Source: an uncultured Gammaproteobacteria bacterium (GTDB lineage: Bacteria; Patescibacteriota; Patescibacteriia; UBA9934; GWF2-40-263). From it: a stretch of DNA of 64,000 bases. Below the pieces are notes generated by a model, which saw only the letters and a list, made by a program, of their open reading frames with translations, did no database searches and was not told where the DNA came from. The stretch is from assembly GCA_964538435.1 (NCBI GenBank), contig CAZIDX010000001.1, positions 393 through 64,392 of the forward strand, written 5' to 3'. Made by a program: the position numbers and the translations under genes. Below, piece by piece: positions 1 to 26,430 of the stretch (its first letter is position 1; the number at the start of each line of letters is the position of its first letter).

Positions 1-370
1 GCGCGAGCTCAAGAAGTACGTGGACGACAAGGGTATCGTCGTGGCTGACCTGATCAGCGCGCGCGAAGAGACCAAGATGAACGAGATGCTGGCCGGCCTC
101 TCCACCAACGAGGACCAGGTCGATCTCTCCGGGGTCTACGATGCTCGTGACCGGGCCCAGGCCCGCGCCGAGATCTCGAGCGCCATGGCTGGCACCGACA
201 CCGGTGCGATCGAGGACGAGCTGGACGCCGCTGCGGCCAGTGCCGGAGTCGCGGACAGTTTCTTCGCCGAACTCGACGCCGACGCCGCGGTCGAGGCCGG
301 GCCCACCAAGCCCGCGACCGACAAGGCCAAGGACTCCGGGTCCATCGACTTCGGTGCCCTGGACGACTAG
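1..370 (+). CDS. 5'-truncated CDS; acidic, Ala/Asp-rich C-terminal fragment of a hypothetical protein
   Basis: Reading frame is open from base 2 to the stop at 368-370 with no start in the window, so the gene begins upstream. GC-rich codon usage matches the downstream operon. Confidence 0.4.
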   Translation, partial: RELKKYVDDKGIVVADLISAREETKMNEMLAGLSTNEDQVDLSGVYDARDRAQARAEISSAMAGTDTGAIEDELDAAAASAGVADSFFAELDADAAVEAGPTKPATDKAKDSGSIDFGALDD

Positions 371-435
371 CGCGTCTGGAAACGTGATACGCGTGGAGTG
401 AGATTCAACCCTCACTCCACATTTCAACGCTCAGA

Positions 436-449
436 GTGGGGAAATCCAC
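436..449 (+). promoter_or_regulatory. Conserved leader hairpin, copy A (GTGG-GGAAAT-CCAC) upstream of the lipoprotein gene
   Basis: GGGGAAATCC core with complementary flanks; same motif at 3669-3684 and 5648-5663; followed by CGAGTGAAAC. Confidence 0.4.
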
Positions 450-552
450 AACGAGTGAAACCCAACCTGTCAATTCCAAGAAAAGGAAACTTGGGAAAGA
501 CTTCAAACCCTCGGTCGCGGGTAAGCGACTAACCCCGAGAAGGAGACACTCC

Positions 553-1731
553 ATGCGTCACTCCCTGATCACCCTGATGGCCTTCGGCCTGCTGATGTCC
601 GCGTGCAACGTCGAGGTCGAGAACCCGCCCGTCGCCAACGACTCCACGAACACCGCCGCGGCGCCCGCCGAGGTCCTGTTCACCCCGGTCAAGGCCGCCG
701 ACGGCACCCCGGACTTCAAGCTCGCCTGGAGCTTCTACACCTCCTGGTCCACCCTCGCCTCCGCCGACGCCTTCCACTACATCGACATCCGCGATGGCTG
801 GCAGGGCAAGTTCGAGGTCGAGCACGGCGTTGACGTGGTCCTGGAGCGCCTGGACTACGTGCCCAGCTTCGGTGTCTACGCCGCAGGCGCGGCCGACGCG
901 GTCACCATCACCAACACCGACGCCATGGCCGTGGCCTTCGAGCGCAAGAAGGGCGTGGGCGACGCCACCGTGGCCGTGTTCCCGACCTCGTGGTCCAACG
1001 GCGCGGACAAGATCCTGGTCGAGAAGGCCATCGGCAACTGGGCCGGCCTCGCCGGCGTGCCGGTCAAGGGCGCCGAGCTCTCCGTGACCCAGTACCTGTT
1101 CTGGCGCTGCAACGCCCTGAACGGCACCATGGACCAGTACGACAAGAGCTACGTGTTCGAGAACCTGGATCCCGTGACCGGCGCGCCCCTGTTCGCCGGC
1201 AAGCAGGATCCCAACCTGCAGGCCTTCGGTGGCTGGTCTCCCGAGACCTTCATCGTCCTGGACGGTCGCAACGGCGACGAGAACAGCGCCAACGACGTCA
1301 TCGACCTGTGCAACTCCGAGGCCCTGGACCGCTACGAGATCACCGACATGATGGTGGTCGGGCAGTCCGTGCTCGAGCGCCCGGGCGGCGTCGAGGGTGT
1401 CAAGGCCCTGGCCGCGGCCATGGATGCCATGGCCTCCCGCGTGGCCAGTCCCACCCAGCAGGGTGAGACCTACCGAGCCATCTCCGTCAACTTCAACGAC
1501 GTGGAGACCGGCTACATCCAGAAGGCCATGACCCTGAGCCCGCTGTCGGCCCCGTCCAAGGACCATGCGATCCTGGACTCGAACGAGATGCGTGCCAACA
1601 TGAAGTACGTGGTCGACTTCAGTCTCGAGCACGACCTGATCGGCGCGGCCAGCGACGTCCCGTACAGCTGGGGCACCAAGGCAGAGGCTCCGGACGCGGT
1701 CCTGCGCTTCGACACCTCGTTCGTCCACTAG
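553..1731 (+). CDS. Secreted lipoprotein of unknown function, possibly the substrate-binding component of the adjacent ABC transporter
   Basis: RBS GAAGGAGA before ATG at 553. N-terminus MRHSLITLMAFGLLMSAC has a signal peptide and a lipobox-like LMSAC. The ORF-track start at 436 would add a non-hydrophobic leader. Confidence 0.55.
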   Translation: MRHSLITLMAFGLLMSACNVEVENPPVANDSTNTAAAPAEVLFTPVKAADGTPDFKLAWSFYTSWSTLASADAFHYIDIRDGWQGKFEVEHGVDVVLERLDYVPSFGVYAAGAADAVTITNTDAMAVAFERKKGVGDATVAVFPTSWSNGADKILVEKAIGNWAGLAGVPVKGAELSVTQYLFWRCNALNGTMDQYDKSYVFENLDPVTGAPLFAGKQDPNLQAFGGWSPETFIVLDGRNGDENSANDVIDLCNSEALDRYEITDMMVVGQSVLERPGGVEGVKALAAAMDAMASRVASPTQQGETYRAISVNFNDVETGYIQKAMTLSPLSAPSKDHAILDSNEMRANMKYVVDFSLEHDLIGAASDVPYSWGTKAEAPDAVLRFDTSFVH

Positions 1732-1805
1732 GACGAGCTTCCTGATCGCACACGCGTGATCAACTCCTGCAGCTAGTTCGCTGGCTGCAGGCTTTCCACT
1801 GGAGG

Positions 1806-2684
1806 ATGAGACACTTCGTCTCGTCAACCAATGAGAAGAAAATGGAGGCTGAGATGCAGCGAGAAAACGGCTGGCGCAAAGCCTTGCGTCAGATGACTAC
1901 CATGCGGGAACCGCTTCCCAAGTGGCAGGAGCACATGTTCTTCGCGCTGGCGATCCTCACGATCCTCAGCGTGTACACCTACATCGCGTACTTCGGCGAC
2001 AACACCACCATCCCGACCTGGACCGAGCTCTTCAAGGGCTTTGGCAAGATGATCACGGACCCACGCAACGGGGAGCACATGATCTGGATGGACTCGATCG
2101 CCTCGTTCTCGCGACTGATCCCAGCTGTGGCAACCGCCTCGCTCATCGGGACCCTCATCGGTCTCTACACCGGTGTGTACGTTGCTGCGGACTCGTTCTT
2201 CAGCAAGATCCTGAGCTTCATGGGCAACATCGTCCCGAACGCTGCCATGGTGGTCTTCCTGACCCTGTTCGGATTTGCGTTCAAGATGTACAACGCCGCG
2301 ATCATCTTCGGTATCCTGCCCATCATCGCTACCCGGGTTCACCAGGCAGTCAGTGAGGTCCACAACGACCACATCTACAGCGCCAAGACCCTGGGAGCGT
2401 CGTCCAGCGAGATCATCTGGACCATTCTGCTTCGGCAGTGCATGCCTCAGATCATCGCTGCGGTTCGCGCATCGATCGGTCTGGCACTGATCCTGCTGGT
2501 CGCCACCGAGTGGGTGGCAGGCAGCTCCGGATTCGGGTACCGCTTCATGCGGCTCTACCGGTCCGCGCGCATGGATGTGATCTTCCCGTACCTGATGTAC
2601 CTCGGGTTCCTGGGAATCATCATCCAGCTCTTCTTCAACCAGATGCAGCGCCTGCTGTGTCCTTGGTACACCAAGGAGGACTAG
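1806..2684 (+). CDS. ABC transporter permease, NitT/TauT (SsuC/TauC-like) family
   Basis: Multi-TM protein with the binding-protein-dependent transport signature region (IIAAVRASIGLALILLVATEW...); start codon uncertain (1806, 1839 or later). Confidence 0.7.
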   Translation: MRHFVSSTNEKKMEAEMQRENGWRKALRQMTTMREPLPKWQEHMFFALAILTILSVYTYIAYFGDNTTIPTWTELFKGFGKMITDPRNGEHMIWMDSIASFSRLIPAVATASLIGTLIGLYTGVYVAADSFFSKILSFMGNIVPNAAMVVFLTLFGFAFKMYNAAIIFGILPIIATRVHQAVSEVHNDHIYSAKTLGASSSEIIWTILLRQCMPQIIAAVRASIGLALILLVATEWVAGSSGFGYRFMRLYRSARMDVIFPYLMYLGFLGIIIQLFFNQMQRLLCPWYTKED

Positions 2685-2686
2685 CC

Positions 2687-3601
2687 ATGACTACTCATGA
2701 GCAAGGCGCCTGCGTGGCACTCGAATGCCAGAACGTCAGCAAGTCCTTCGGAAGCACCCGAGTTCTGACCGACATCAACCTCGAGATCGGAACTGGGCAG
2801 ATTGTGGCCCTGGTCGGTGCGTCCGGCTGCGGCAAGTCCACGCTCCTCAACATGATCGTGGGCACACATCGGCCTTCCACGGGTCTGATCTACACGGTCC
2901 AGGACGGGTCCAAGACCCATGTGCAGACGCACGGTCCTGACCGCGGTATGGTCTACCAGAACTACAGCCTGTACCCGCACCTGACCGCGCTGAGGAACGT
3001 GACGCTCGGGCCCATGCTGCACGAGACGTCCATTCCTGGCCGCTGGCTGGGCTGGATCACGGGTTCGTGGCGCCAGCTGCGACGCGAGCATCAGGGCAAG
3101 GCCATGAAGCTCCTCACCGAGCTCGGTCTGGGTGAGCACGCTCACAAGTACCCGCACCAGCTCTCGGGTGGGAAGCGCCAGCGCGTGGCCATTGCCCGAT
3201 CCCTGATCATGGATCCCCAGATCCTGCTGCTCGACGAGCCCTTCGGAGCGCTCGACGAGGAAACGCGCAATGACGCGCGCCGCCTGTTGCTGGACCTCTA
3301 CGGCAAGGTGACCATCCTGATGGTGACCCACTCGCTCGAAGAGGCTGTGCACGTGGGTGACCGTGTGATCGCGCTTGGGAAGAACTGGAACGGCGGCGAG
3401 CGCGGTGCAACCGTGATCTACGACAAGCCGGCTCCGGTCTACATCTCCAGCGACCCGCTGCAGGACACCAAGATCATCGAGCAGGCCCAAGAGATCTTCC
3501 GGGCCATGTTCGAAAGCCCGAACCTCGACCCTACCGAGTACGTCACCTTCTGGGACGACGTCAAGGCCGGGCGGGTCGAAGGGGTCCTGGCATCGCGCTA
3601 G
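2687..3601 (+). CDS. ABC transporter ATP-binding protein (NitT/TauT family) with a C-terminal extension of about 50 aa
   Basis: RBS AAGGAGGA before ATG 2687; Walker A GASGCGKST, ABC signature LSGGKRQR, Walker B LLLDEPFGALD. The ORF-track start at 2438 overlaps the permease frame. Confidence 0.85.
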   Translation: MTTHEQGACVALECQNVSKSFGSTRVLTDINLEIGTGQIVALVGASGCGKSTLLNMIVGTHRPSTGLIYTVQDGSKTHVQTHGPDRGMVYQNYSLYPHLTALRNVTLGPMLHETSIPGRWLGWITGSWRQLRREHQGKAMKLLTELGLGEHAHKYPHQLSGGKRQRVAIARSLIMDPQILLLDEPFGALDEETRNDARRLLLDLYGKVTILMVTHSLEEAVHVGDRVIALGKNWNGGERGATVIYDKPAPVYISSDPLQDTKIIEQAQEIFRAMFESPNLDPTEYVTFWDDVKAGRVEGVLASR

Positions 3602-3668
3602 GACAAACAAAACGAGCTCAGCTCGAACGAGAGCGAGGCCCACAAAGCCTCGCTCTTTCTACATCAGA

Positions 3669-3684
3669 CTCGGGGAAATCCGAG
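3669..3684 (+). promoter_or_regulatory. Conserved leader hairpin, copy C (CTCGG-GGAAAT-CCGAG) about 35 nt upstream of the AAA+ gene start
   Basis: Same GGGGAAATCC core with covarying flanks; followed by CGATGACCAATCTACAA box shared with copy B. Confidence 0.45.
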
Positions 3685-3719
3685 AACGATGACCAATCTA
3701 CAAACGGAGGATAGACGCG

Positions 3720-5600
3720 ATGAAATTCCGTCATCTCGACTACGAGTTCCGACGTCAGACTGCCAGGATGTTCATGTCCGGGCAGTCGCAGAGCATCATT
3801 CTCCACGGCAACGTGGGGGACTACTTCTACCTGAAGCCCGAGCATTCAGGCAGGGATCCGAAGACCAACGAGATCCTGCACAAGGAAGGCAAGTACGTCA
3901 CCATGCTCGACTACTTGCGTCCGAGGTGGGGGAACGTGGCCAATACCATCCTGCTCGTCTACGAGCTGGGTGGCCCGATCCAGTTCATGTCCAAGGAAGA
4001 CCGCACGCTGTTGCGCGAAGCTTGGCTCAAGTTCCGGACAGAGGAGCTCTGGCAGGAGAACATGAAGGCCGACATCCTGGTCGATCCCAAGGAGGCCGAA
4101 GAACAGGTCGCGTCGCAGTTCAACGAGCTGCTCACTCGAGCCCACAAGGACCCGTCTCAGGCCCTGCGCATTCTGCGCAAGTTCTGCCAGATCTCCCGCT
4201 GGGAACACAAGGACAACCCGATCCGTAATCATCGGATCGTGATCCTGCTCGAGGATGCGGACCTGATCATTCCCGAAGGGGAGATCACGCGCATGAGCGA
4301 CAAGGATCGTCGGCGCATGGTGATCTGTCGGGAGTGGTTCACGGACCCTGGGTTCATGAACGGCGAAGACGCAGTGGTCATGATCGCTGAGTCTGCCAGC
4401 CAGATCAACGGTCGTGTCAGCAAGCTCCCGCAGGTTCTTCGTGTGGCTGTGAACGCTCCTCTGGAGCACGAGCGTGCACACTACATCCGATGGTTCAACG
4501 CCATGCAACCCAAGGATCGCAAGATCAAGCTCTGGGGCACACAGGAAGTACTGGCTGCCTACTCAGCAGGCCTGAACTTGCACGCCCTGCGCCAGATGCT
4601 CGTGGGTGCCACCTACGAGGATCGCAAGCTCGAGAAGAGCGACGTCACTGACCATGTCGAGGCGTACATCATCGCGCAGCTGGGTGAGGGTACGGTCGAG
4701 TTCCATCGGCCACACCACCACCTCAAGGATCTGGTCGGAAACGCAGACGTGATCCGCTTCCTGCGCGAGACCGTGATCCCGCGCATGCTCTCAACCGGCA
4801 AGAGCGCTCTCAGCGGCATTGCTGTCTCAGGCCCTATCGGTGCAGGCAAGACCTTCATCTTCGAGGCTGTGGCTGCCGAACTGGGTATGCCGGTCCTGAT
4901 CCTCAAGAACCTCCGCAGCAAGTGGTTCGGAGGTACGGATGTGATCATGGAGCGGCTCGAGCGCGTGCTCTACAGTCTGTCCAAGGTCGCGATCTTCGTG
5001 GACGAAGCCGACACCGTGTTCGGCGGAGTCGGACAGGACGTACACGCCACCGAGCGCAGGCTCACCGGCAAGATCCAGTCCTGGATGTCAGACCCGCGCC
5101 TCAAGGGCAAGGTGATCTGGATCCTGATGACGGCCCGCGTGCAGAACCTATCCGCAGACATCCGTCGCCCCGGGCGCGTTGGCAACCTGATCATCCCGAT
5201 CCTGGACCCGACCGGCGACGATCGCATTGCGTTCATCAACTGGGCGCTCAAGGGCTACTGCAAGCTTCCTAAGCAGGGGAGCGCAGAATGGATCCGAATC
5301 GAAGAAGCAACCAAGGGTTTCTCGGCCGCGCAGTTCGCTGCACTTCGAGAAGAGCTGGATGCTCAGGTCGAGCTCACAGGCAATGATCTCACCTTCAAGG
5401 ACGCTCTCGAGATCCTAGAAGAACAGCTCTCAGCTGACATCCAGACCGAGCGCCGAGTCCAGGAGCTCTACGCTCTGGTCAACTGCACACGCAAAAGCCT
5501 GCTGCCCGGCGGCAAGGACCTGTCGCGTGCGGATGTCGAGGAGCTGAAGAAGGGGTGGATGAAGGAGATCCACATGCACAAGCGCGCACTCGCCGCTTGA
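3720..5600 (+). CDS. Classic-clade AAA+ ATPase with a degenerate N-terminal AAA-like domain (two-domain architecture)
   Basis: RBS GGAGGA; C-terminal domain has Walker A GPIGAGKT, Walker B IFVDEAD, and an SRH-like RPGRVGN motif. N-terminal half has pseudo Walker A GQSQSIILHGNVGD and Walker B-like VILLEDAD. Confidence 0.75.
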   Translation: MKFRHLDYEFRRQTARMFMSGQSQSIILHGNVGDYFYLKPEHSGRDPKTNEILHKEGKYVTMLDYLRPRWGNVANTILLVYELGGPIQFMSKEDRTLLREAWLKFRTEELWQENMKADILVDPKEAEEQVASQFNELLTRAHKDPSQALRILRKFCQISRWEHKDNPIRNHRIVILLEDADLIIPEGEITRMSDKDRRRMVICREWFTDPGFMNGEDAVVMIAESASQINGRVSKLPQVLRVAVNAPLEHERAHYIRWFNAMQPKDRKIKLWGTQEVLAAYSAGLNLHALRQMLVGATYEDRKLEKSDVTDHVEAYIIAQLGEGTVEFHRPHHHLKDLVGNADVIRFLRETVIPRMLSTGKSALSGIAVSGPIGAGKTFIFEAVAAELGMPVLILKNLRSKWFGGTDVIMERLERVLYSLSKVAIFVDEADTVFGGVGQDVHATERRLTGKIQSWMSDPRLKGKVIWILMTARVQNLSADIRRPGRVGNLIIPILDPTGDDRIAFINWALKGYCKLPKQGSAEWIRIEEATKGFSAAQFAALREELDAQVELTGNDLTFKDALEILEEQLSADIQTERRVQELYALVNCTRKSLLPGGKDLSRADVEELKKGWMKEIHMHKRALAA

Positions 5601-5647
5601 ACACCAGGGTTCGTCAACGACTGACGGACCCATTTCAACACGCAGCG

Positions 5648-5663
5648 CAGGGGAAATCCTGCA
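5648..5663 (+). promoter_or_regulatory. Conserved leader hairpin, copy B (GCAGG-GGAAAT-CCTGC) about 35 nt upstream of the next gene
   Basis: Third copy of the GGGGAAATCC core with compensatory flank changes; followed by GTGTGACCAACTACCA box. Confidence 0.45.
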
Positions 5664-5696
5664 CGTGTGACCAACTACCAGGACCGGAGTGAAACA

Positions 5697-6809
5697 ATGC
5701 CCACCATGCACGCCCGCCTGTGCCGCACGATTCTTCGAAACGCCAGGAAGGCGGGGAAGTTCTACGAGTACGACGATGAGAGCTCGCTCGACGAGCCCAT
5801 CATGTTCTTCTTCCAAGAGTCCGTGGAAGGTCTGGTGCTCTTCATTGTGTACCGCACACTTCCATGCGTCTTCAACGGATGCACCTTCTGCCGTCTGCCT
5901 GGTACATCCACGCTGCGCGAGGTGAACTTCCGTCACGTAATGAATCAGACCAGGTACGTGATGACCCACCCGGACGTGGTGCCGCGCCTGGACGAGATCC
6001 AGAAGCTGATCATCTCCAACCAAGGCTCCATCCTGGACCAACGCACGTTCGACCAGCTCGCGCTCATGGACCTGATCGCTCAGGGTGAGTACAACTTCCC
6101 GAACATGGCTAGCATGTGCCTGGAGACCCGCATCTGCTACGTCGAGGATGAAGAGATTGTGCTACTCGGCCATGCCATGGCTGGCGGTGACACCGTGACT
6201 GTGCTCGAGTTCGGGATCGGGGTCGAGGCCTACAACGACTCAATCCGCAACTCCAGGCTCGGCAAGGGGATGCATCTGCGCGAGAAGCCCAACAGCCTCG
6301 AGCGACTGGCCGAACGGCTCTCGCTCTTGTGTGAGGACATGCTACGCTTCCGCATCAAGTGCTACTTCCTGCAGAAGCCCCACGAGAGCATGACCGACGA
6401 AGAGGCGGTCCAGGACGTCAAGGACATGATCGACTTCATGTCTGGTCTGGTCGCCAAGCATGCGATCCGGATGAACCTCCATCTCAACCCCACCTTCGCG
6501 GCCAAGGAAACCAAGCTCGAGACCGAATTCAAGGCCGGCAGGTTCACACCGCCACGCCTGAGTGATGTCGCGCGCGCGGTTCTCTACGCCGAGGACAAGG
6601 GGGTGAGTGTGTTTGTCGGGCTCGACGACGAGGGGCTTGCCTGCGAAGGAGGTTCCTTCCTGCAGCCTGGCAACGAGCGCATGGTTGCGGCCCTGGATCA
6701 GTTCAACCGTACGCAAGACTTCGATGAGCTGCGCGCAAGGCTGGATGCCTACCTTGGCGATCCGCACTACAATCACGAGACCGACCTGATCGAGGTTCCA
6801 ACGGCCTGA
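5697..6809 (+). CDS. Hypothetical 370-aa protein with a CX4CX2C cysteine cluster (CVFNGCTFC)
   Basis: RBS GGAG before ATG 5697 (ORF track starts at GTG 5667). GC-rich codon usage; sits immediately downstream of the AAA+ gene and shares its leader motif. No family recognised. Confidence 0.55.
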   Translation: MPTMHARLCRTILRNARKAGKFYEYDDESSLDEPIMFFFQESVEGLVLFIVYRTLPCVFNGCTFCRLPGTSTLREVNFRHVMNQTRYVMTHPDVVPRLDEIQKLIISNQGSILDQRTFDQLALMDLIAQGEYNFPNMASMCLETRICYVEDEEIVLLGHAMAGGDTVTVLEFGIGVEAYNDSIRNSRLGKGMHLREKPNSLERLAERLSLLCEDMLRFRIKCYFLQKPHESMTDEEAVQDVKDMIDFMSGLVAKHAIRMNLHLNPTFAAKETKLETEFKAGRFTPPRLSDVARAVLYAEDKGVSVFVGLDDEGLACEGGSFLQPGNERMVAALDQFNRTQDFDELRARLDAYLGDPHYNHETDLIEVPTA

Positions 6810-6928: not shown

Positions 6929-7441
6929 CTATTTAATTGTATACAAATAGAGATCAAGTTGCCCCGCGGCTTTGCTTATCTCTTCAGCCTCCCATTCAGG
7001 GATCGGCCAGACATAGCTGATAACCCTAGTTCCAGGTTTGAGCTCTGAGCGAAGCTTTGACTCAATCTTTTCATATGTCTCAGGCATCAGAAACATGTAC
7101 ACCGCATCATATTCATTCAAGTTCTTACCAAACACATTCCCAAATCGATATCGAGCTCGAGAACGCGTTGCTGATGCTTGCAGGGCTGCAACAAGATATT
7201 GCAGTAGAGAAAGCTCAACGCCATGCACTGCGACTCCGGGATTCTTCTGAGCCAAATGTCGACATACACGCCCATTCCCACACCCAAGCTCAACGAACTT
7301 CTCACCATCCTTAAGCTTGAGTAATTTATGTATCCGATCAAGATCTTGCTTCCTGGTAGGCACCCAAGGCGCCCCAGAAGCCGCTGCATACGCAAGCGAG
7401 GCCAGGAGAACCAAGCCAATCCCAGCAAAAACATATAACAT
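6929..7441 (-). CDS. Class I SAM-dependent methyltransferase, small, with an N-terminal TM segment
   Basis: Motif I VELGCGNGRV; about 170 aa. Confidence 0.65.
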   Translation of the reverse strand: MLYVFAGIGLVLLASLAYAAASGAPWVPTRKQDLDRIHKLLKLKDGEKFVELGCGNGRVCRHLAQKNPGVAVHGVELSLLQYLVAALQASATRSRARYRFGNVFGKNLNEYDAVYMFLMPETYEKIESKLRSELKPGTRVISYVWPIPEWEAEEISKAAGQLDLYLYTIK

Positions 7442-7703: not shown

Positions 7704-8480
7704 CTAGGCCTGTGCCGGCTCCTGGTTGTTCACCACGAGCTGCAGGCCGCTGCCGCGCAGCAGATCACTCATGCTGGCGCTGCCGCCGCTGTCCTGGTGA
7801 ACGACATCCTCACCATCGGCCAGGTCGGCATTGGTCAGGATCTCGCGCACGCGCATGTCGAGGTTGATGCCCTTGCCGCTGACCGGGTTCCAGTCCAGGC
7901 TGCGGGTCGCGAAGGTGCGGGACTCGCCGCCGAACATGAGCGGAGCCGGCCGCGAGTACATCATGCCAGCGGGATCCTTGAGCACGATGCGCTGCTTGGG
8001 CTTGGGATCACCTTCCTCGAGCGGGAAGACATCCAGGAAGAACATGTAGTTCTTCCAGACCTTGAAGTGGGGATCCTGGCGCGTGTCCGCGTCCTTGATG
8101 TGCACGGTGCGCACACCGACCTTGACCCGGCCAGCGACGATCAGGGCGTCATCGCCCTTGGGGCCGCGCAGGTGCACGCTGATGCCGCTGCAGCGGTCGC
8201 CCAGGCGCACGTGATGGTACTCGCCGATGGGGGAGTCGGTCACGGGCGTGTGCTCCGCACCCTTGGGGATCTCGATGATGCAGGGGCCCAGGTCCTCGGC
8301 GTAGAACAGTTCCTGGATCGTGGGGTCGTTGCCCTTGTGTCGGGGCGGCTTCTCGATGGTGGCGATGTGACCCACGCCGTCGGTCTCGACGTTCATCGCT
8401 CGCAGCTCGGCGAGGAAGTCCTCCCAGTGCGCAAGAACGTTCAGTCCTCCGATCGTTCGGACGGTCATGTCGGACATCAT
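7704..8480 (-). CDS. Hypothetical protein, GC-rich gene
   Basis: 258-aa ORF with ordinary amino-acid composition; the overlapping + ORF 7317-8726 looks like an antisense shadow. A TTGACA-N17-TATTTT promoter lies on the minus strand near 8560-8600. Confidence 0.55.
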   Translation of the reverse strand: MMSDMTVRTIGGLNVLAHWEDFLAELRAMNVETDGVGHIATIEKPPRHKGNDPTIQELFYAEDLGPCIIEIPKGAEHTPVTDSPIGEYHHVRLGDRCSGISVHLRGPKGDDALIVAGRVKVGVRTVHIKDADTRQDPHFKVWKNYMFFLDVFPLEEGDPKPKQRIVLKDPAGMMYSRPAPLMFGGESRTFATRSLDWNPVSGKGINLDMRVREILTNADLADGEDVVHQDSGGSASMSDLLRGSGLQLVVNNQEPAQA

Positions 8481-8664
8481 TCACTCCATTGGTTGACGCG
8501 GCCAAGTCGTGGCGGCGTACAGGATTTCCGCTTTAAAAACGGTTCTGACGCAGCGGTCAGACGACGAAAAATACCACAAAATGGTACTTTTGTCAACCTC
8601 TGGAGCCAAAAAACACACAAAAATGGATGCTTTTTATGGATTCGACCCTGGGGAAATCTCTTTG

Positions 8665-8692
8665 TTTACAAAAAAAATACCTTGTGTATAAT
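8665..8692 (+). promoter_or_regulatory. Sigma70-type promoter (TTTACA-N16-TGTGTATAAT, extended -10) for the 8734 gene
   Basis: Read directly from the sequence; a GGGGAAATC motif sits just upstream at 8650-8658. Confidence 0.55.
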
Positions 8693-8733: not shown

Positions 8734-9177
8734 ATGGATATCCAAACACTTTTTAAACTCGAGATCGGTGAAACCGTTCGAGTCTCCAACGAGCCACTCA
8801 CGCTCATTGGACGATCTACAATCACATTTGATGGCGGTGACGAGCTTGTCTGGCTCTTTGATGAAGACGAGCGCATTCTCTCAGTCGCACCAGAGGAAGA
8901 AGAGCTTTTCTTGTTTGAAAAACTTGATGAAGAAATCGAGCCAGACGAAGAGGGGATTCTTTACCAAGGAAAAGAGTACGAATTCCACTACAAAGACACA
9001 GGTGTGGTGACAGAGGTAGAGGGCGACGTCATAACCGAGCCAGACGACACCTACTTGTACATGGACTACGAAGCAAAGGATGGGGGTGTGCTGCGCATTG
9101 TCAGCAACGAGAATACAGGTGAAGCAGGTGCCTATGTTGGCCGCACGGTTTCAGAAGATGATCTAAACGAGCTGTAG
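8734..9177 (+). CDS. Small acidic cytoplasmic protein, possibly DUF4178-like
   Basis: RBS AGGAGGAG; 147 aa; family assignment is from memory only. Confidence 0.45.
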   Translation: MDIQTLFKLEIGETVRVSNEPLTLIGRSTITFDGGDELVWLFDEDERILSVAPEEEELFLFEKLDEEIEPDEEGILYQGKEYEFHYKDTGVVTEVEGDVITEPDDTYLYMDYEAKDGGVLRIVSNENTGEAGAYVGRTVSEDDLNEL

Positions 9178-9202: not shown

Positions 9203-9236
9203 AAAATAGAGATGGCAAAATGCCGTCTCTATTTTG
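9203..9236 (+). terminator. Rho-independent terminator (13-bp stem AAATAGAGATGGC/GCCGTCTCTATTT + T-run)
   Basis: Near-perfect hairpin followed by TTTTG; the ORF-track start at 9212 lies inside this hairpin. Confidence 0.7.
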
Positions 9237-9244
9237 ATATTCTC

Positions 9245-10450
9245 ATGAAAAAAGCGATCTCATTCATCGTTCTGGGTGTGGTGGTTGTGCTTTCTGTCAC
9301 AGCAGCCACATATATCGTGCTCATGCAGCTGGATCCTGATCTTGAAGTACGTAAAATGATGATAGCAATGGCCAGCCTCGAGACAGTGAGGCAAGACTCA
9401 GGCTTTAGCTGGACGCGCGGAGAAGGCAGTGAGCGCATAAACACAACACTCTACACAACAGGCCAGATAAGCATTGATGATGAGGCTAATCTCCAGCACG
9501 CAACACAGTTTCGGGTTGTGCACATGGGGGCGGATAATTCGTACTCAGACCTCTCAGGCGAATTCCGAATGCTAGAGGATGCAAGCTACCTCACATACAC
9601 ACCTCCAGGCCCAAGCGTAGACGGCGTGTCGTTTGATCAAGAGCAAACCTGGATTGCATTCGCTCAAGATGAGCTGCTCTCCTGGGGGGCTGTGCTACCG
9701 GGTCTTGAGCTTCCAATCGCTTTGAGTGAACAGAAAATATCCTGGACCCCAGACGTATTCGCGCGCCTCCGTTACCTGCTTTCCTCAACAGATGTTTTCA
9801 TCGCCCAAGCAAGTGGACTCACACAGATCGTAGGGAATGCAAACACAAGAATAATTGATGCAACGTTTGACCCAGATGTTGTAGAAGCCTTCCTGCGTGA
9901 CATTGTGCGCGCAAAGCAAGGGCGAGACCCAACAGAAGACGAACGAGAGCTTGTGGCCAAGCAGGCCGAGCAGATTAAGCGATTAACATTCAGGTTCTGG
10001 ATCGGCACACAGGATCATTATCTTTATAAACTACAAGCCGCTGGCGCCTTCTCAGATCCAGAAACAAATGACCTAATCCCAGTTGACATCAAGGTAGAGT
10101 TTGAGGACTTCAACGAACCATTCGACATTGACGAGCCCAATGACCCACTCCTTTTTGAGCAAGTACTCAGGTCAGTGTTTGCTGACCTGCCAGATTCAGA
10201 AGCGCTCACACTGGGAGGGGTAAACAAGGTGCTAGTAACAGATGAAACAGCAAGGCTGCCAGTAGAGGAGGTGGAGGAATCAACCGACCAAGATGAGGAT
10301 GGGCTTAGCAATGTTCTTGAGGCGTTCTACGGCACCAATCCAAACGACCCTGACACAGATGGTGATGGGGTAACAGACGGCGACGAGGTGCGCAAAGGGC
10401 ATAATCCACGAGGAACCGGGTCATTATTCGGATTCGGGCTAGAGAGATAG
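9245..10450 (+). CDS. Membrane-anchored secreted protein with C-terminal acidic Ca-binding-like repeats (DxDxDGxxDxDE)
   Basis: N-terminal TM segment (ISFIVLGVVVVLSV); C-terminus has TDQDEDGLSN...NPNDPDTDGDGVTDGDE, resembling thrombospondin-type-3-like motifs. Start moved to ATG 9245, downstream of the terminator. Confidence 0.5.
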   Translation: MKKAISFIVLGVVVVLSVTAATYIVLMQLDPDLEVRKMMIAMASLETVRQDSGFSWTRGEGSERINTTLYTTGQISIDDEANLQHATQFRVVHMGADNSYSDLSGEFRMLEDASYLTYTPPGPSVDGVSFDQEQTWIAFAQDELLSWGAVLPGLELPIALSEQKISWTPDVFARLRYLLSSTDVFIAQASGLTQIVGNANTRIIDATFDPDVVEAFLRDIVRAKQGRDPTEDERELVAKQAEQIKRLTFRFWIGTQDHYLYKLQAAGAFSDPETNDLIPVDIKVEFEDFNEPFDIDEPNDPLLFEQVLRSVFADLPDSEALTLGGVNKVLVTDETARLPVEEVEESTDQDEDGLSNVLEAFYGTNPNDPDTDGDGVTDGDEVRKGHNPRGTGSLFGFGLER

Positions 10451-10451
10451 A

Positions 10452-12230
10452 ATGACAGCAAAAAAACGAAAACGAGCTTGGCGCCCATCGCGCAAATCAA
10501 ATCCAGACACCCGTCTGGAAGTTTTGCGCATTGGAGCGATCTTATTTGTTTCGGTGATTGTTCTCAAGCTGTTTATCCTCCAGGTGGTCCAGCATGATTT
10601 TTATGATGCGCTTGCAAGTGGGCAGCACGAACTCTTTGAGGAGCTGATTCCAGTCAGAGGTACAGTGTACGTGCATGATTACAAGGATGAAACATTGGTT
10701 CCCGTTGCAACCAATCAAAAACTAGCATTCATCTACGCAGACCCTCGGCTCGTGGAAGATCCAGACGGAACCGCAGAAGACTTGGGGGATATCTTTGATT
10801 GGGATGAAGAAAAAATTGAAGCGCTCGAAGCCAGACTTGAGCAAGAAGACGATCCATACGAGCCAGTCATGAGAAAAGTCGAAGAGGACATGCTTGACGA
10901 GGTGCTTGCGCTTGAGTTGCCAGGCATTTTCTATGTCAGAGAAGCTTCCAGGCTCTATCCAGAGGCTGAGATGAGCGGGCATGTGCTCGGGTTTGTAGGC
11001 TCAAACGAAGACGGTTCGCTCTCTGGAAAATACGGCATCGAAGGATATTTTAACGAGGAGCTCTCAGGTGAAGCAGGATATCTTCTCTCAGAACGAGACA
11101 TTGCAGGTAGGCTCATTGCTGTGGCAGATCGTGTGTATGAGCCAGCGCAAGATGGTGTTGATATCGTGCTAACACTCGATAGGACCGTGCAGTACAAGGC
11201 TTGCTCGCTCTTAAACGAGGCCGTGGAGAAGCATGGTGCTGATGGTGGAAGCGTGGTGATCATCGAGCCGTCAACGGGGCACATTCTTGGGATGTGTGGA
11301 GCTCCAGACTATGATCCAAACGCATACGGCCAAGTGGACAGCATTGATCAGTTTAACAACCCAGCCATTTTTAACGCCTACGAACCAGGTTCGATTTTCA
11401 AGCCTCTCACCATGGGGGCAGCACTTGATGTTGAGGCTGTAACTCCAACAACGCTGTACACAGATCTTGGATATGAAATGGTTGATGGTTGGGATTATCC
11501 AATTAGAAACGCAGAAGACAAGGTGTATGGCGAGGTGAATATGACTCAGGTTCTAGAAGACTCCGTTAACACAGGAATGATTTTTTCCATGCGCGAAACC
11601 GGCATGGATACCTTTGTGGAGTACGTAAAGACGTTTGGTTTTGGGGAGTCTACAGGCATCGAACTTGATACAGAGGCAATTGGAACCATCAGTTCTCTCG
11701 ACATTGGCGCAGAGATCTACGCCGCAACCGCAAGTTACGGACAGGGGATCACAGTCACACCACTCCAGATCGCCATGGCCTACGCAGCAATCGCAAATGG
11801 AGGCGTGCTCAAAAAACCGCTTATTGTTGATGAGGTGCACAATCCAGACGGAACCGTAGAAAAACGAACATCTCAAGACCTGGCGCAAGTCATTCAATCA
11901 TCAACCTCTCGCACGCTCGCTGCCATGCTTGTGTCTGTGATTGAACATGGTCATGGTTCTCGTGCTGGTGTTGAGGGGTATTACATTGCAGGAAAGACAG
12001 GAACCGCCCAGGTGGCTCGATCAGACGCGGTCGGTTACGACGAGGACAACACCATTGGTTCTTTTGCTGGCTTTGGGCCAGTTGAAGACCCTCGTTTTGC
12101 AATGGTGGTTCGTATTGATAATCCAAAAGACGTAGTCTGGGCAGAATCCACGGCCGCCCCGCTCTTTGGGGAGATTGCAGAGTTTCTGCTACAGTACTTT
12201 GAGATCCCTCCAGTTCGCACACTAGAATAA
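10452..12230 (+). CDS. ftsI: Penicillin-binding protein 2 / FtsI-type peptidoglycan transpeptidase
   Basis: N-terminal TM and dimerisation region; active-site motifs SIFKP (SxxK), SVNT (SxN), KTGTA (KTG). Confidence 0.85.
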   Translation: MTAKKRKRAWRPSRKSNPDTRLEVLRIGAILFVSVIVLKLFILQVVQHDFYDALASGQHELFEELIPVRGTVYVHDYKDETLVPVATNQKLAFIYADPRLVEDPDGTAEDLGDIFDWDEEKIEALEARLEQEDDPYEPVMRKVEEDMLDEVLALELPGIFYVREASRLYPEAEMSGHVLGFVGSNEDGSLSGKYGIEGYFNEELSGEAGYLLSERDIAGRLIAVADRVYEPAQDGVDIVLTLDRTVQYKACSLLNEAVEKHGADGGSVVIIEPSTGHILGMCGAPDYDPNAYGQVDSIDQFNNPAIFNAYEPGSIFKPLTMGAALDVEAVTPTTLYTDLGYEMVDGWDYPIRNAEDKVYGEVNMTQVLEDSVNTGMIFSMRETGMDTFVEYVKTFGFGESTGIELDTEAIGTISSLDIGAEIYAATASYGQGITVTPLQIAMAYAAIANGGVLKKPLIVDEVHNPDGTVEKRTSQDLAQVIQSSTSRTLAAMLVSVIEHGHGSRAGVEGYYIAGKTGTAQVARSDAVGYDEDNTIGSFAGFGPVEDPRFAMVVRIDNPKDVVWAESTAAPLFGEIAEFLLQYFEIPPVRTLE

Positions 12231-12240
12231 AACCGCTCAC

Positions 12241-12290
12241 CACGTCATCCTGAGCGCCTGCCTGCCGGTAGGCAGGAAGCGAAGGATCCC
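12241..12290. repeat. Solo copy of the GIY-YIG element terminal repeat (CACGTCATCCTGA-hairpin-GAAGGATCCC) in the murF leader
   Basis: Matches the left ends of the elements at 41448 and 45948, including a covarying internal hairpin (CCTGCC..GGCAGG vs CCCGCC..GGCGG). Confidence 0.55.
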
Positions 12291-12333
12291 ACTCTCAGCA
12301 AGAAACAAGTCAACGAGCAGTATCTAAACTCAC

Positions 12334-13629
12334 ATGAATATGAAAGCGTTTATCCAGGCACAACTTAAGAAAAAGGCACAAAAACTCATTGCAAAGCACA
12401 AGCCGATGGTGATTGGAGTGACAGGTTCTGTTGGAAAGACGTCTGCGCGTAATGTGATCGCTCAGGTTCTGGGAGAAAAGTATCGCGTGCGCACAACCAT
12501 TGACAACTACAACAACGAACTCGGTTTGCCGCTGACGATTCTTGGTGAGAAATCACCTGGACGCTCAGTGCTGGGTTGGCTCAGGGTGCTCACAAAAAAG
12601 ATTGAAGACGTGCCAGAAGTGTTTGTGCTCGAATACGCTGTAGATCATCCAGGCGATATGGCTTACCTGTGCGACATTGCTGAGCCTGACATTGCAGTAT
12701 TCACACGCATCTCTCCAGTGCACGCTGAGAACTTCAGGTCAGTGGAAGAGCTCATCGAAGAGAAAGCTGTCTTGCTCGAGCGAACAAAAGAGGGTGGAAT
12801 GGTTGTGCTCAACGCAGATGATCCACGCGTCCTTGGCGCAAGCAATCACGCAAACGCACCTGCGATTACGTATGGGTTTGCTCAGAACGCAGACGTACGC
12901 GCAACTGATTATGAGCTTGCCACGCGAGAAGACTTCTCTTTTGAGCCTGGCGAGACACTCTCCGAGGTTCGCTTCACCGCCGTCACTGAAAAAACACAGC
13001 TCCCAGTTCGCCTCATCAACCTACTCGGCAGGACCGCCGCCCACGCTGTGCTCCCAGCCATTACTATCGGATGGCACCTAGGGCTAGATCCAGACGAGAT
13101 CACAAAGGGGCTTGCAAAGTCAGAGCTCGAGCCTGGGCGCATGAACCCTGTTCCAGGAATCAAAGGATCACTCATCATTGACTCAAGCTACAATGCAGCA
13201 CCTGCTTCCATGGAGGCTGGGCTCAATGTCCTGCATGAGTTCAAGCCAGTGGAGATAGCAAGACGAATCGCTGTGCTTGGTGTGATGGGGGAGCTTGGTG
13301 CAGACTCAGAGCAAGAGCATAGAATGATCGGGCTCAAGTGCGCAGAGGTTGGTGTCGATGTGCTCGTGACTGTTGGAGAAAAAGCAAGAGACATCCGCTA
13401 CGGCGCCATCGAGGCAGGAATCCCAGAAGACAAATGCGAACACTTTGAACACGCAGTAGAAGCCGGTCGTTGGATGGATGCGCACATCAAAAAGGGTGAC
13501 ATCGTGCTAGTGAAAGGATCACAATCGTCTCGCATGGAAAAGGTGGTAAAAGACATCATGGCTGAGCCACTCAGAGCAAAGGAGCTCCTGGTCAGGCAAT
13601 ATGGGAAGTGGGTGGAGGATGAGGAGTAA
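12334..13629 (+). CDS. murF: UDP-N-acetylmuramoyl-tripeptide--D-alanyl-D-alanine ligase (Mur ligase family; MurF more likely than MurE)
   Basis: Mur ligase P-loop IGVTGSVGKTS; DSSYNAAPASMEAGL motif; position downstream of ftsI. Confidence 0.7.
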   Translation: MNMKAFIQAQLKKKAQKLIAKHKPMVIGVTGSVGKTSARNVIAQVLGEKYRVRTTIDNYNNELGLPLTILGEKSPGRSVLGWLRVLTKKIEDVPEVFVLEYAVDHPGDMAYLCDIAEPDIAVFTRISPVHAENFRSVEELIEEKAVLLERTKEGGMVVLNADDPRVLGASNHANAPAITYGFAQNADVRATDYELATREDFSFEPGETLSEVRFTAVTEKTQLPVRLINLLGRTAAHAVLPAITIGWHLGLDPDEITKGLAKSELEPGRMNPVPGIKGSLIIDSSYNAAPASMEAGLNVLHEFKPVEIARRIAVLGVMGELGADSEQEHRMIGLKCAEVGVDVLVTVGEKARDIRYGAIEAGIPEDKCEHFEHAVEAGRWMDAHIKKGDIVLVKGSQSSRMEKVVKDIMAEPLRAKELLVRQYGKWVEDEE

Positions 13630-23344: not shown

Positions 23345-23373
23345 TTGACAAAATGGCGAAAATCGAGTATTCT
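23345..23373 (+). promoter_or_regulatory. Sigma70-type promoter TTGACA-N17-TATTCT preceding a leader of about 235 nt
   Basis: Read directly from the sequence; a terminator hairpin for the upstream gene lies at about 23297-23323. Confidence 0.5.
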
Positions 23374-23607
23374 CCAATCTTCTTTACCCAATACCAAGGC
23401 AACTATCGCAGCCAAAAATTGCATAGAAACACTCCATGTTCCCTCATGAACAACAACAGCTCAGAGGTTTTTGCAGGGAGTTTTTGTTTTGTGGTCGCTC
23501 GTGCTCAATGGAGGCTTTGCACGGGTTGTCACCGAACAGGTATTACGCCTGAAACGAACAACCTCCCATGCGCTTTTTGCGCTTCCTGTTCATCACAAGG
23601 AGACTTC

Positions 23608-26430
<2,823 letters not shown>

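Follow-up and report, generated by a model that had tools for sequence, protein, structure and literature searches.

The 64,000-nucleotide stretch analysed here (contig CAZIDX010000001.1, positions 393 to 64,392; hereafter the window) encodes, at positions 3720 to 6809, an AAA+ ATPase of 626 amino acids (aa) followed by a 370-aa radical S-adenosylmethionine (SAM) protein. We think it probable that the ATPase acts as a Vps4-like remodeller of a PspA-like protein and that the radical-SAM protein is a solute-processing enzyme, the two belonging to one conserved envelope operon and not forming an ATPase-client pair. The apparent pair of an ATPase and an unplaced partner is the visible tail of a larger operon that is cut by the window edge. 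The window opens inside the PspA-like gene, and the likely partner of the ATPase was therefore not visible to the first-pass annotation, which had read the two genes as a tightly linked pair, either an ATPase-client or activase system or possibly an Fe-S enzyme with its maturase. The features that carry the argument are:

2..370, plus strand: 3' end (last 122 codons and stop) of a PspA/Vipp1-like gene of the ESCRT-III (endosomal sorting complex that is required for transport) superfamily, from profile alignment
3720..5600, plus strand: two-tier classical AAA+ ATPase, 626 aa, ATG start, from Pfam, PDB sequence matches, family alignment and AlphaFold/Foldseek
4830..4853, plus strand: Walker A motif GPIGAGKT of D2, residues 371-378; G371, G374, G376 and K377 invariant in 31 sequences
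4920..4931, plus strand: pore loop 1, KWFG; W402 and G404 invariant and F403 nearly so in 31 sequences
4995..5012, plus strand: Walker B motif FVDEAD, residues 426-431; D428 and E429 invariant in 31 sequences
5166..5186, plus strand: RPGRVGN, residues 483-489, end of the second region of homology with arginine fingers; R482, R483 and R486 invariant
5697..6809, plus strand: radical-SAM enzyme, 370 aa, of a TIGR01210-like (RaSEA/QueL-like) bacterial family, from NCBIfam, alignment and fold
5865..5891, plus strand: codons of C57-X4-C62-X2-C65 (CVFNGCTFC, residues 57-65), the predicted [4Fe-4S] ligands; all three Cys invariant in 31 sequences

Positions 1-6809 of the window hold the distal part of an operon whose gene order we read from loci L007 and L008. 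It begins with an NMT1-type solute-binding protein (SBP; 612 aa), a VWA protein, an SBP-OmpA fusion that includes an OmpA peptidoglycan-binding domain (530 aa), a membrane-anchored, transmembrane (TM) coiled-coil protein (256 aa) and the PspA-like protein (276 aa), and continues with a further SBP, a permease, an ATP-binding cassette (ABC) ATPase and the AAA protein. The radical-SAM enzyme, encoded after the AAA gene, is the tenth member in the window's operon. The AAA alignment served to retrieve 80 genome loci, in which we then located the operon proteins by mapping; the same order is found in Verrucomicrobiota, Planctomycetota, Hydrogenedentota, Poribacteria, Desulfobacterales, Nitrospiraceae, Acidobacteriota, Lentisphaerota, Kiritimatiellota and Uhrbacteria. 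Loci were baited with the AAA or the radical-SAM protein and a flank of 10 kb, and the AAA-centred counts are taken from loci with enough flank. A PspA-like gene is located within 5 kb upstream of the AAA gene in 52 of 55 loci, and an ABC ATPase gene lies directly 5' of it in 43 of 55. In 11 loci the PspA-AAA dyad occurs without ABC genes. A radical-SAM gene directly follows the AAA gene in at least 10 of 69 loci (11 with L031).

We compared these counts with 80 radical-SAM-centred metagenome loci, 54 of which were informative. Here, the radical-SAM gene adjoins SBP, VWA or ABC genes in 41 cases; 8 loci have an adjacent AAA gene, 33 have importer genes without an adjacent AAA gene and 13 have neither. 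The gene occupies at least four positions, namely after the ABC ATPase gene, after the AAA gene, before the NMT1 gene, and divergent. The AAA-less operons either lack PspA or have TelA instead. The first form reads NMT1, VWA, SBP-OmpA, TM coiled-coil, SBP, permease, ABC ATPase and radical SAM, without PspA. In the second form TelA (PF05816, E 1.3e-72) takes the place of PspA, the radical-SAM gene is retained, and a 287-aa membrane coiled-coil protein precedes TelA (L136 4756-6906; also L120, L125, L134, L139 and L150). Among the clustered neighbours of the operon-unlinked radical-SAM genes we found no informative partner; these neighbours are typical of their lineages only (a Gfo/Idh/MocA oxidoreductase, a sulfatase, prepilin-like proteins). 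The strong linkages are thus those of AAA with PspA and of radical SAM with importer genes, and the adjacency of AAA and radical SAM is real but secondary.

These distributions bear directly on the pairing proposed earlier. A dedicated activase, remodeller or maturase of the radical-SAM enzyme (for example in Fe-S loading or repair, or in CbbX-like release) is a very unlikely role for the AAA protein. It would fit the adjacency of the two genes in the window, in L001 and in L006/L089, their recurrence as neighbours in 10-11 of the 69 AAA loci (Planctomycetota, Desulfobacterota, Kiritimatiellota, Acidobacteriota), and the leader that both genes bear. However, about 85% of AAA loci have no downstream radical-SAM gene, 33 of the 54 radical-SAM loci have ABC or SBP genes but no adjacent AAA gene, the SBP gene has the same leader, and the AAA gene co-varies with PspA. 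In addition, a rough neighbour-joining tree places the clade of the window's radical-SAM protein, found with AAA, as sister to a clade from operons that lack both AAA and PspA, with contexts interleaved elsewhere. A dedicated pair is accordingly not supported, and of the idea of an Fe-S enzyme with its maturase the enzyme finds support but the maturase does not. The tight linkage holds in so far as the genes are neighbours; a structured spacer of 96 nt lies between them, with no overlap or translational coupling. The first-pass annotation had itself named as grounds for abandoning the pair that the 370-aa protein belong to a well-known family and that the two genes not be syntenic in other genomes. 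The protein does fall into a well-known superfamily, but the synteny exists elsewhere, as a minority pattern.

Alignment and structural model show the 626-aa protein to be a type-II classical AAA protein with a predicted inactive D1 and a complete D2. A D1-like, inactive tier spans about residues 1-330 and the active D2 about residues 335-545, followed by a conserved helical C-terminal region. PF00004 matches residues 369-489 (E 3.2e-16, 60.4 bits against a cut-off of 21.2), and the top matches among PDB sequences are the D2 domains of VAT, Cdc48 and p97 (~1e-22), in agreement with the classical C-terminal AAA domain recognized at first pass. The open reading frames (ORFs) and the motifs GPIGAGKT, FVDEAD, RPGRVGN and CVFNGCTFC picked out there are all present, and the motifs are invariant in the 31-member alignments. 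Walker A, Walker B, a second region of homology with arginine fingers and pore loop 1 are all found in D2, as in the classical AAA clade. An aromatic-hydrophobic-Gly pore loop 1 is a feature of substrate-threading classical AAA proteins such as Vps4 and p97. The N-terminal half has no Walker A motif, with LHGNVGDYF at the P-loop site, yet Foldseek aligns about 620-690 columns of the AlphaFold model (predicted local distance difference test score (pLDDT) 89) with D1-D2 of p97/Cdc48, Rix7 and Pex1/6. The degenerate pseudo-ATPase half suggested earlier is therefore supported. With two AAA tiers of which the first is inactive, the protein is probably a remodelling ATPase, as the first-pass annotation had proposed.

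Homologues of the AAA protein are full-length (about 600-630 aa), share 44-53% identity and occur in many phyla, and the mean column identity in the 31-sequence alignment is 63%. Among the NCBIfam models that match the family, CdvC ranks second by frequency, with 28 of 31 members (best 1.1e-14); in the window protein this match spans the AAA domain only and reaches 32 bits against a cut-off of 650. Cdc48/p97/VAT, Rix7 and Pex1/Pex6 provide the best sequence and fold matches and have the stacked D1-D2 arrangement in common with our protein. In contrast to Cdc48/p97, its D1 has no Walker A motif, it has no Cdc48-type N domain, it is shorter, and identity over the structural alignment is about 15%. 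A possible relation to cyanobacterial Ycf46, suggested by a Joint Genome Institute (JGI) COG label, is a lead only, for which a literature search yielded nothing usable.

The PspA-like gene is cut by the window edge; on the related contig FLOH01000142.1 it is complete. When translated, positions 2-370 match the family profile over its C-terminal 106 columns (hhalign probability 98.6%, E 5.6e-16). For the family, represented by the 276-aa protein, the top 8 PDB profile matches are all Vipp1/PspA (best E 3.3e-5, residues 65-249 against 28-212), and the similarity to PspA/Vipp1 profiles covers the helical hairpin region. PspA_IM30 (PF04012) is the commonest Pfam match (7 of 12 members, best 2.5e-6), the first member scoring below the gathering score. 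A variable low-complexity linker leads to the extreme C-terminus, which reads xLPE-COOH in 57 of the 74 loci; proteins of the window's clade end in ALDD or PLDA (LD[DA]), at window positions 356-367. On the basis of its sequence conservation, this tail may be a short docking motif for the AAA protein.

A likely mode of action can be proposed for the ATPase. It would form a hexamer and thread the PspA-like protein, and perhaps also the membrane coiled-coil protein, through the KWFG pore. In this way it may disassemble or recycle PspA polymers at the inner membrane face, as Vps4/CdvC does for ESCRT-III, possibly docking on the extreme C-terminal tail of PspA, that is xLPE in most lineages and LD[DA] in the window's clade. 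Alternatively, the AAA protein could act on the transporter; as a factor in quality control or assembly of the ABC system, it would extract or unfold the permease, the precursor of an SBP, or the VWA protein. The frequent position of its gene directly after the ABC ATPase gene (43 of 55 loci) would suit such a role, but the 11 PspA-AAA dyads without nearby ABC genes, and the ABC operons without AAA, make it highly improbable. PspA remains our preferred substrate.

Judged from family profile and fold, the 370-aa protein is a radical-SAM Fe-S enzyme. It had been left without a family at first pass, a view that its match to NCBIfam TIGR01210 (RaSEA) and its fold overturn. The match covers residues 46-346 (E 2.4e-18, 66.4 bits against a cut-off of 212.15). 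All 31 aligned members match the same model, the best with E 5.1e-35 and about 115-120 bits, and all remain below the 212-bit cut-off. As the match is found in all members but far below the cut-off, the family is sister to RaSEA but distinct from it. The start at ATG 5697, giving 370 aa, fits the N-termini of homologues; a longer ORF starts at GTG 5667. The CX4CX2C motif sits in the loop after the strand of residues 45-51 in the model, as expected for the cysteine motif of the superfamily, and has the same spacing as CIWGKCSFC in queuine lyase (PDB 6P78). About 50 further positions are invariant in the alignment of 31 sequences. The AlphaFold model (pLDDT 93.9) contains a single radical-SAM barrel of the partial TIM-barrel type, and its top Foldseek matches are Elp3 radical-SAM domains, followed by MgmA, DesII, AprD4 and lysine 2,3-aminomutase. 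PF04055 did not match the window protein in Pfam and Radical_SAM_C did so only below threshold (E 0.025); the family is divergent and escapes the Pfam model. A phmmer search with the 370-aa protein against PDB sequences gave no match at E<=1, and the protein is placed only by family-profile and fold searches. With the family profile, queuine lyase ranked first among PDB sequences (E 7.2e-5). The nearest structures include the small-molecule lyases QueL, MqnE, NosL and ThiH.

The homologues form a compact bacterial family with 41-49% identity, from Verrucomicrobia, Planctomycetes and Desulfobacterota, and many carry the JGI label 'radical SAM enzyme (TIGR01210 family)'. The family is small, with 162 representatives (50% identity clusters) at E<=1e-30 among 1.84 billion. 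In distant members (P0404, P0447, P0453) the enzyme is joined in one polypeptide with a class-I methyltransferase, with an EamA transporter or with a P-type ATPase; the latter two fusions speak for the link to the importer. A subfamily of about 490 aa (P0374-P0392) bears an unassigned N-terminal domain of about 180 aa. On contig FLOH01000142.1 (L006 12007-12975) the public gene call is a 322-aa minus-strand ORF that lies over an intact plus-strand radical-SAM gene, 76% identical to the window gene and revealed by tblastn and ORF mapping.

We considered what such an enzyme could do in this setting. A [4Fe-4S] cluster is predicted on C57, C62 and C65 and would cleave SAM, yielding the 5'-deoxyadenosyl radical. 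The gene follows importer genes with or without PspA and AAA, and the enzyme therefore likely transforms the imported solute; it would process that solute or carry out a cytoplasmic step coupled to import. The small RaSEA/QueL-like group in which we place it has two characterised members. Queuine lyase reportedly (work of 2019) cuts the C-N bond on a 7-deazaguanine substituent. Compared with QueL (6P78), which has 229-251 residues and lies outside the Foldseek top 50, our 370-aa protein shows 13% identity, and we saw no queuosine-salvage genes near the radical-SAM gene. RaSEA, the beta subunit of archaeosine synthase, acts on preQ0-Lys in tRNA and cuts the C-N bond of the 7-deazaguanine side chain (PMC11298593). 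No other curated family matches every member over close to the full length. Unlike RaSEA, however, the window's family is bacterial, scores 66-120 bits against 212, and is linked to ABC importer genes rather than to tRNA-modification genes.

It is necessary to ask whether the protein is a tRNA or RNA modification enzyme of the RaSEA/Elp3 kind that has no tie to the transporter, its position being due to co-regulation or chance. The best family match, RaSEA, and the weaker match to Elp3 speak for this option, as do the 13 of 54 informative loci in which the gene is unlinked to the operon and has no recurrent partner. Yet the gene is linked to SBP, VWA or ABC genes in 41 of 54 loci, in at least four positions, and a linkage kept across these positions argues for selection on proximity. 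The scores fall well short of the RaSEA cut-off, and no ArcS-like partner was noticed in any locus, although no systematic search for ArcS was made. We therefore regard an RNA-modification role as unlikely and continue to prefer a solute-processing enzyme.

The importer genes and the gene downstream of the operon are located as follows:

553..1731, plus strand: SBP lipoprotein of a NitT/TauT-type ABC importer; ATG 553 after AGGAG, signal peptide with lipobox LMSAC
1806..2684, plus strand: ABC importer permease; PF00528 BPD_transp_1 E 3e-16, best NCBIfam matches SaoP, TauC and NtrB
2690..3601, plus strand: ABC ATPase, extended at the C-terminus by about 70 aa; PF00005 E 1.8e-32, NCBIfam sulfate/nitrate/taurine-type
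6929..7441, minus strand: class-I SAM-dependent methyltransferase, 170 aa, convergent with the operon; Pfam methyltransferase domains

The window SBP shares 29% identity with the SBP at the equal operon position in L008 (E 5e-40) and matches NCBIfam TIGR03427 below cut-off (E 1e-27). The 170-aa methyltransferase gives a weak NCBIfam match to an archaeal protein-lysine methyltransferase (E 5.8e-12, below cut-off). Homologues in one or the other orientation lie beside the AAA or radical-SAM gene in loci L001, L006/L089, L010 and L094. The methyltransferase is a neighbour that recurs, but its membership in the system is uncertain. We found no similarity between the window methyltransferase and the one fused to a distant radical-SAM homologue. 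A target within the system itself, such as PspA, the VWA protein, an SBP or a lipid, has also to be considered for the radical-SAM enzyme in place of an imported solute. The enzyme is encoded with envelope proteins, next to this recurrent, weakly protein-lysine-methyltransferase-like neighbour, and a class-I methyltransferase is part of one distant homologue by fusion. On the other hand, we found no SPASM/twitch domain and no recognition domain for ribosomally synthesized and post-translationally modified peptides (RiPPs) in the single-barrel model, the nearest structures are small-molecule lyases, and the enzyme persists in operons without PspA. Modification of an envelope component is hence not a likely function either, and an imported solute remains the substrate we favour.

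Several observations weigh against our interpretation of the operon. In the AAA-centred loci, radical-SAM genes that lie upstream of the first gene of the operon, as in L007 and L128, are missed with a 10-kb flank, and the count of 10 in 69 is therefore a lower bound for the adjacency of AAA and radical SAM. This adjacency recurs in at least 5 phyla, and some functional contact is possible. In the window the radical-SAM gene is the immediate neighbour of the AAA gene, with the PspA gene 3.3 kb upstream. The substrate relation between AAA and PspA is drawn from gene neighbourhood and from analogy. Neither Pfam nor NCBIfam detected an MIT domain in the AAA protein, which is not a Vps4 orthologue. 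For the TM coiled-coil protein, neither Pfam nor a profile search of the PDB showed Snf7 or PspA similarity, and its hhalign comparison with the PspA-like profile gave a probability of 1.2%; its Snf7 nature is taken from Ravi et al. (2024) and was not reproduced here. The SBPs resemble NitT/TauT-family proteins (TIGR03427, SsuA, TauA, NMT1), all below cut-offs. Finally, the substrate of RaSEA is tRNA and not a free solute, so that an imported solute is not the sole option for the radical-SAM enzyme.

Part of this system has been described before. In a computational study, Ravi et al. (2024, mSystems, PMC11237479) reported that bacterial PspA is sometimes found with a two-AAA+ protein whose N-terminal AAA domain is inactive, and proposed ATP-dependent membrane remodelling analogous to Snf7/Vps4. 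The window protein likewise contains two AAA-fold domains, the N-terminal one without nucleotide-binding motifs, and a PspA gene is located in the same operon (window 2-370; 52 of 55 loci). Judged from the published domain strings, the operons of Ravi et al. (AEY64320.1/AEY64321.1 and the OGG56892.1 locus) resemble ours in combining PspA, the inactive-plus-active AAA protein, an ABC ATPase and a permease, and also in an SBP fused to OmpA, a membrane-anchored coiled-coil protein ('TM+Snf7') and a tie of remodelling to solute transport. The ABC ATPase, permease and SBP lie in the window; the SBP-OmpA gene is upstream of it and is present in L006/L089 and most loci. Differences are found in the gene order of their example, and in that their description does not include the conserved xLPE tail, the RNA leaders or the TelA-containing AAA-less variant. 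A radical-SAM enzyme, NMT1, VWA and TelA are mentioned neither in their text nor in their supplement. We found no report elsewhere in the literature of a radical-SAM link to the PspA-AAA-ABC system, and no relevant literature on TIGR01210, on NMT1/VWA/OmpA/AAA/radical-SAM operons or on conserved operons of the Planctomycetes-Verrucomicrobia-Chlamydiae (PVC) group. The AAA protein thus adds a member to a family known from earlier in silico work, and the core PspA-AAA-ABC association is already published. As far as we can tell, the radical-SAM linkage is new, as are the operon variants without AAA and with TelA, the conserved tail of the PspA-like protein and the structured RNA leaders.

A comparison with the ESCRT machinery places the ATPase more precisely. 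Reviews (PMC7619361, PMC10936438) credit bacteria with relatives of ESCRT-III, namely PspA and Vipp1, but with no ATPase of the Vps4 type for disassembly. According to a 2025 review (PMC7619361), a Vps4-like ATPase appears to be absent in bacteria, and ESCRT systems with both Vps4 and ESCRT-III are restricted to the archaea and the eukaryotes (Makarova et al. 2024, PMC10936438). Like ESCRT-III/Vps4 (CdvB/CdvC), the window's system combines a polymer protein of the ESCRT-III superfamily with a classical AAA protein that has a threading pore loop and arginine fingers. Unlike Vps4/CdvC, the AAA protein lacks an MIT domain and is built of two tiers rather than one, and its partner is of the PspA type and not of the Snf7 type. 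The resemblance is, by these features, best described as functional analogy and not orthology. The archaeal Meth_adaptin ESCRT loci in the work of Makarova et al. (2024, PMC10936438), which include a ProX-type SBP, are similar to our operon in joining an ESCRT-III/AAA remodelling module to an ABC-type SBP. These loci differ from the window in being archaeal, in having a true Vps4 and adaptin-like components, and in having no radical-SAM enzyme.

The leader shared by the AAA and radical-SAM genes, noted at first pass, turned out to be more than a short repeated motif. The 10-mer GGGGAAATCC occurs exactly 3 times in the 64 kb, always on the plus strand (438, 3672 and 5650); the SBP, AAA and radical-SAM genes each start about 47-115 nt downstream of a copy. 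Each of the three spacers contains a two-hairpin fold:

393..457, plus strand: leader copy 1; GC hairpin 393-420, UUUCAAC, conserved hairpin 428-457 with GAAA; z = -3.85
3629..3691, plus strand: leader copy 2; GC hairpin 3629-3657, UUUCUAC, conserved hairpin 3662-3691 with GAAA; z = -4.90
5607..5669, plus strand: leader copy 3; GC hairpin 5607-5631, UUUCAAC, conserved hairpin 5639-5669 with GAAA; z = -3.09

The predicted folds are alike, with a GC hairpin of 10-11 bp, UUUC(A/U)AC, the second hairpin and then (G)A(A)ACCAA. In the second hairpin an outer stem of 4-5 bp, a 3x3 internal loop and an inner stem of 5-6 bp are closed by a GAAA tetraloop. Compensatory exchanges are seen across the copies in the inner stems (GUGG/CCAC, CUCGG/CCGAG, GCAGG/CCUGC) and in the outer stems (CGCUC/GAGUG, CAUC/GAUG, ACACG/CGUGU), and RNAalifold reports double changes in 6 of 10 pairs. 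A descriptor search was used in place of a covariance model, and MAFFT had set the copies out of structural register; the descriptor has a background of about 4.4 matches per 64-kb window on both strands, and only sequence-similar matches were accepted. The element is present at the orthologous spacers of the related contigs L001 (4251-4292, 6258-6300) and L006/L089 (L089 4421-4462, 7965-8007, 9938-9979). Distant operons keep a recognisable leader only before the SBP gene (L010 6638-6681, L091 6648-6689, L094 4940-4982). Rfam contains no family that matches the leaders, whether gathering thresholds are applied or E<=1 is allowed. As the SBP gene bears a copy too, the leader does not mark the AAA and radical-SAM genes as a pair. 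The three leaders are structured RNA elements that probably set the relative expression, processing or stability of operon segments.

A standard promoter was dropped as an explanation for the leaders, since a sigma-70 scan of the three spacers gave no match. Strong sigma-70-like matches in the first 9 kb are found only at 8568-8692, where TTTACA-16-TATAAT on the plus strand and TTGACA-17-TATTTT on the minus strand face each other, 5' of the DUF4178 gene (8734-9177) and of a minus-strand ORF (7704-8480).

The genes that flank the operon point to its host. Penicillin-binding protein 2 (PBP2; window 10452-12230) is 91% identical to its counterpart on FLOH01000142.1 and about 74% identical to proteins of Candidatus Uhrbacteria and Patescibacteria. 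The window therefore comes from a bacterium of the candidate phyla radiation (CPR), and by this sequence comparison the host is Candidatus Uhrbacteria-like (Patescibacteria/CPR). The operon block (window 1-6809) has a GC content of 58-67% and a GC content at third codon positions (GC3) of 0.79-0.95; the adjoining PBP, Mur-ligase and TSP3 genes (9212-13629) have a GC3 of 0.47-0.54. This contrast, together with the SBP, permease and ABC ATPase genes upstream, bears out the earlier view that both genes belong to a GC-rich ABC-importer operon. On FLOH01000142.1 (locus L006) the operon lies at the same site, upstream of the DUF4178-TSP3-PBP-Mur genes, and is likewise GC-richer, as is the complete operon in the Uhrbacteria genome L010 relative to its flanks. 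Recent horizontal transfer as the source of the GC-rich island is weakened by the conserved site and by the GC excess in these relatives, which argue that the compositional anomaly is old or selection-driven. Further along the window, at 23353-26430, we noted a protein of 1025 aa in which ten putative metal-binding repeats of the MopE type occur (PF11617, E 8e-90), which is unusual for a CPR genome.

These findings bear on the question of how PspA polymers are recycled in bacteria. The AAA family occurs in many phyla and nearly always with a PspA-like gene. From its consistent linkage to a multi-SBP importer, and with a radical-SAM enzyme included in many lineages, it seems that a single system may unite the remodelling of membranes with uptake and radical chemistry. 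One may go further and imagine a single machine, in which the PspA module and a Vps4-like ATPase reading xLPE are physically coupled to a peptidoglycan-anchored multi-SBP importer, the cargo of which is cut by a C-N lyase of the QueL/RaSEA type. This extension is speculative, and we consider it possible though rather doubtful. If true, such an integrated machine would be of a kind that bacteria were thought to lack. In reduced CPR bacteria it could serve to take up and unpack a host-derived nutrient, for example a compound bearing a 7-deazapurine or an amidine. A 13-kb envelope operon is a large investment for a small CPR genome, which argues for its importance to that lifestyle.

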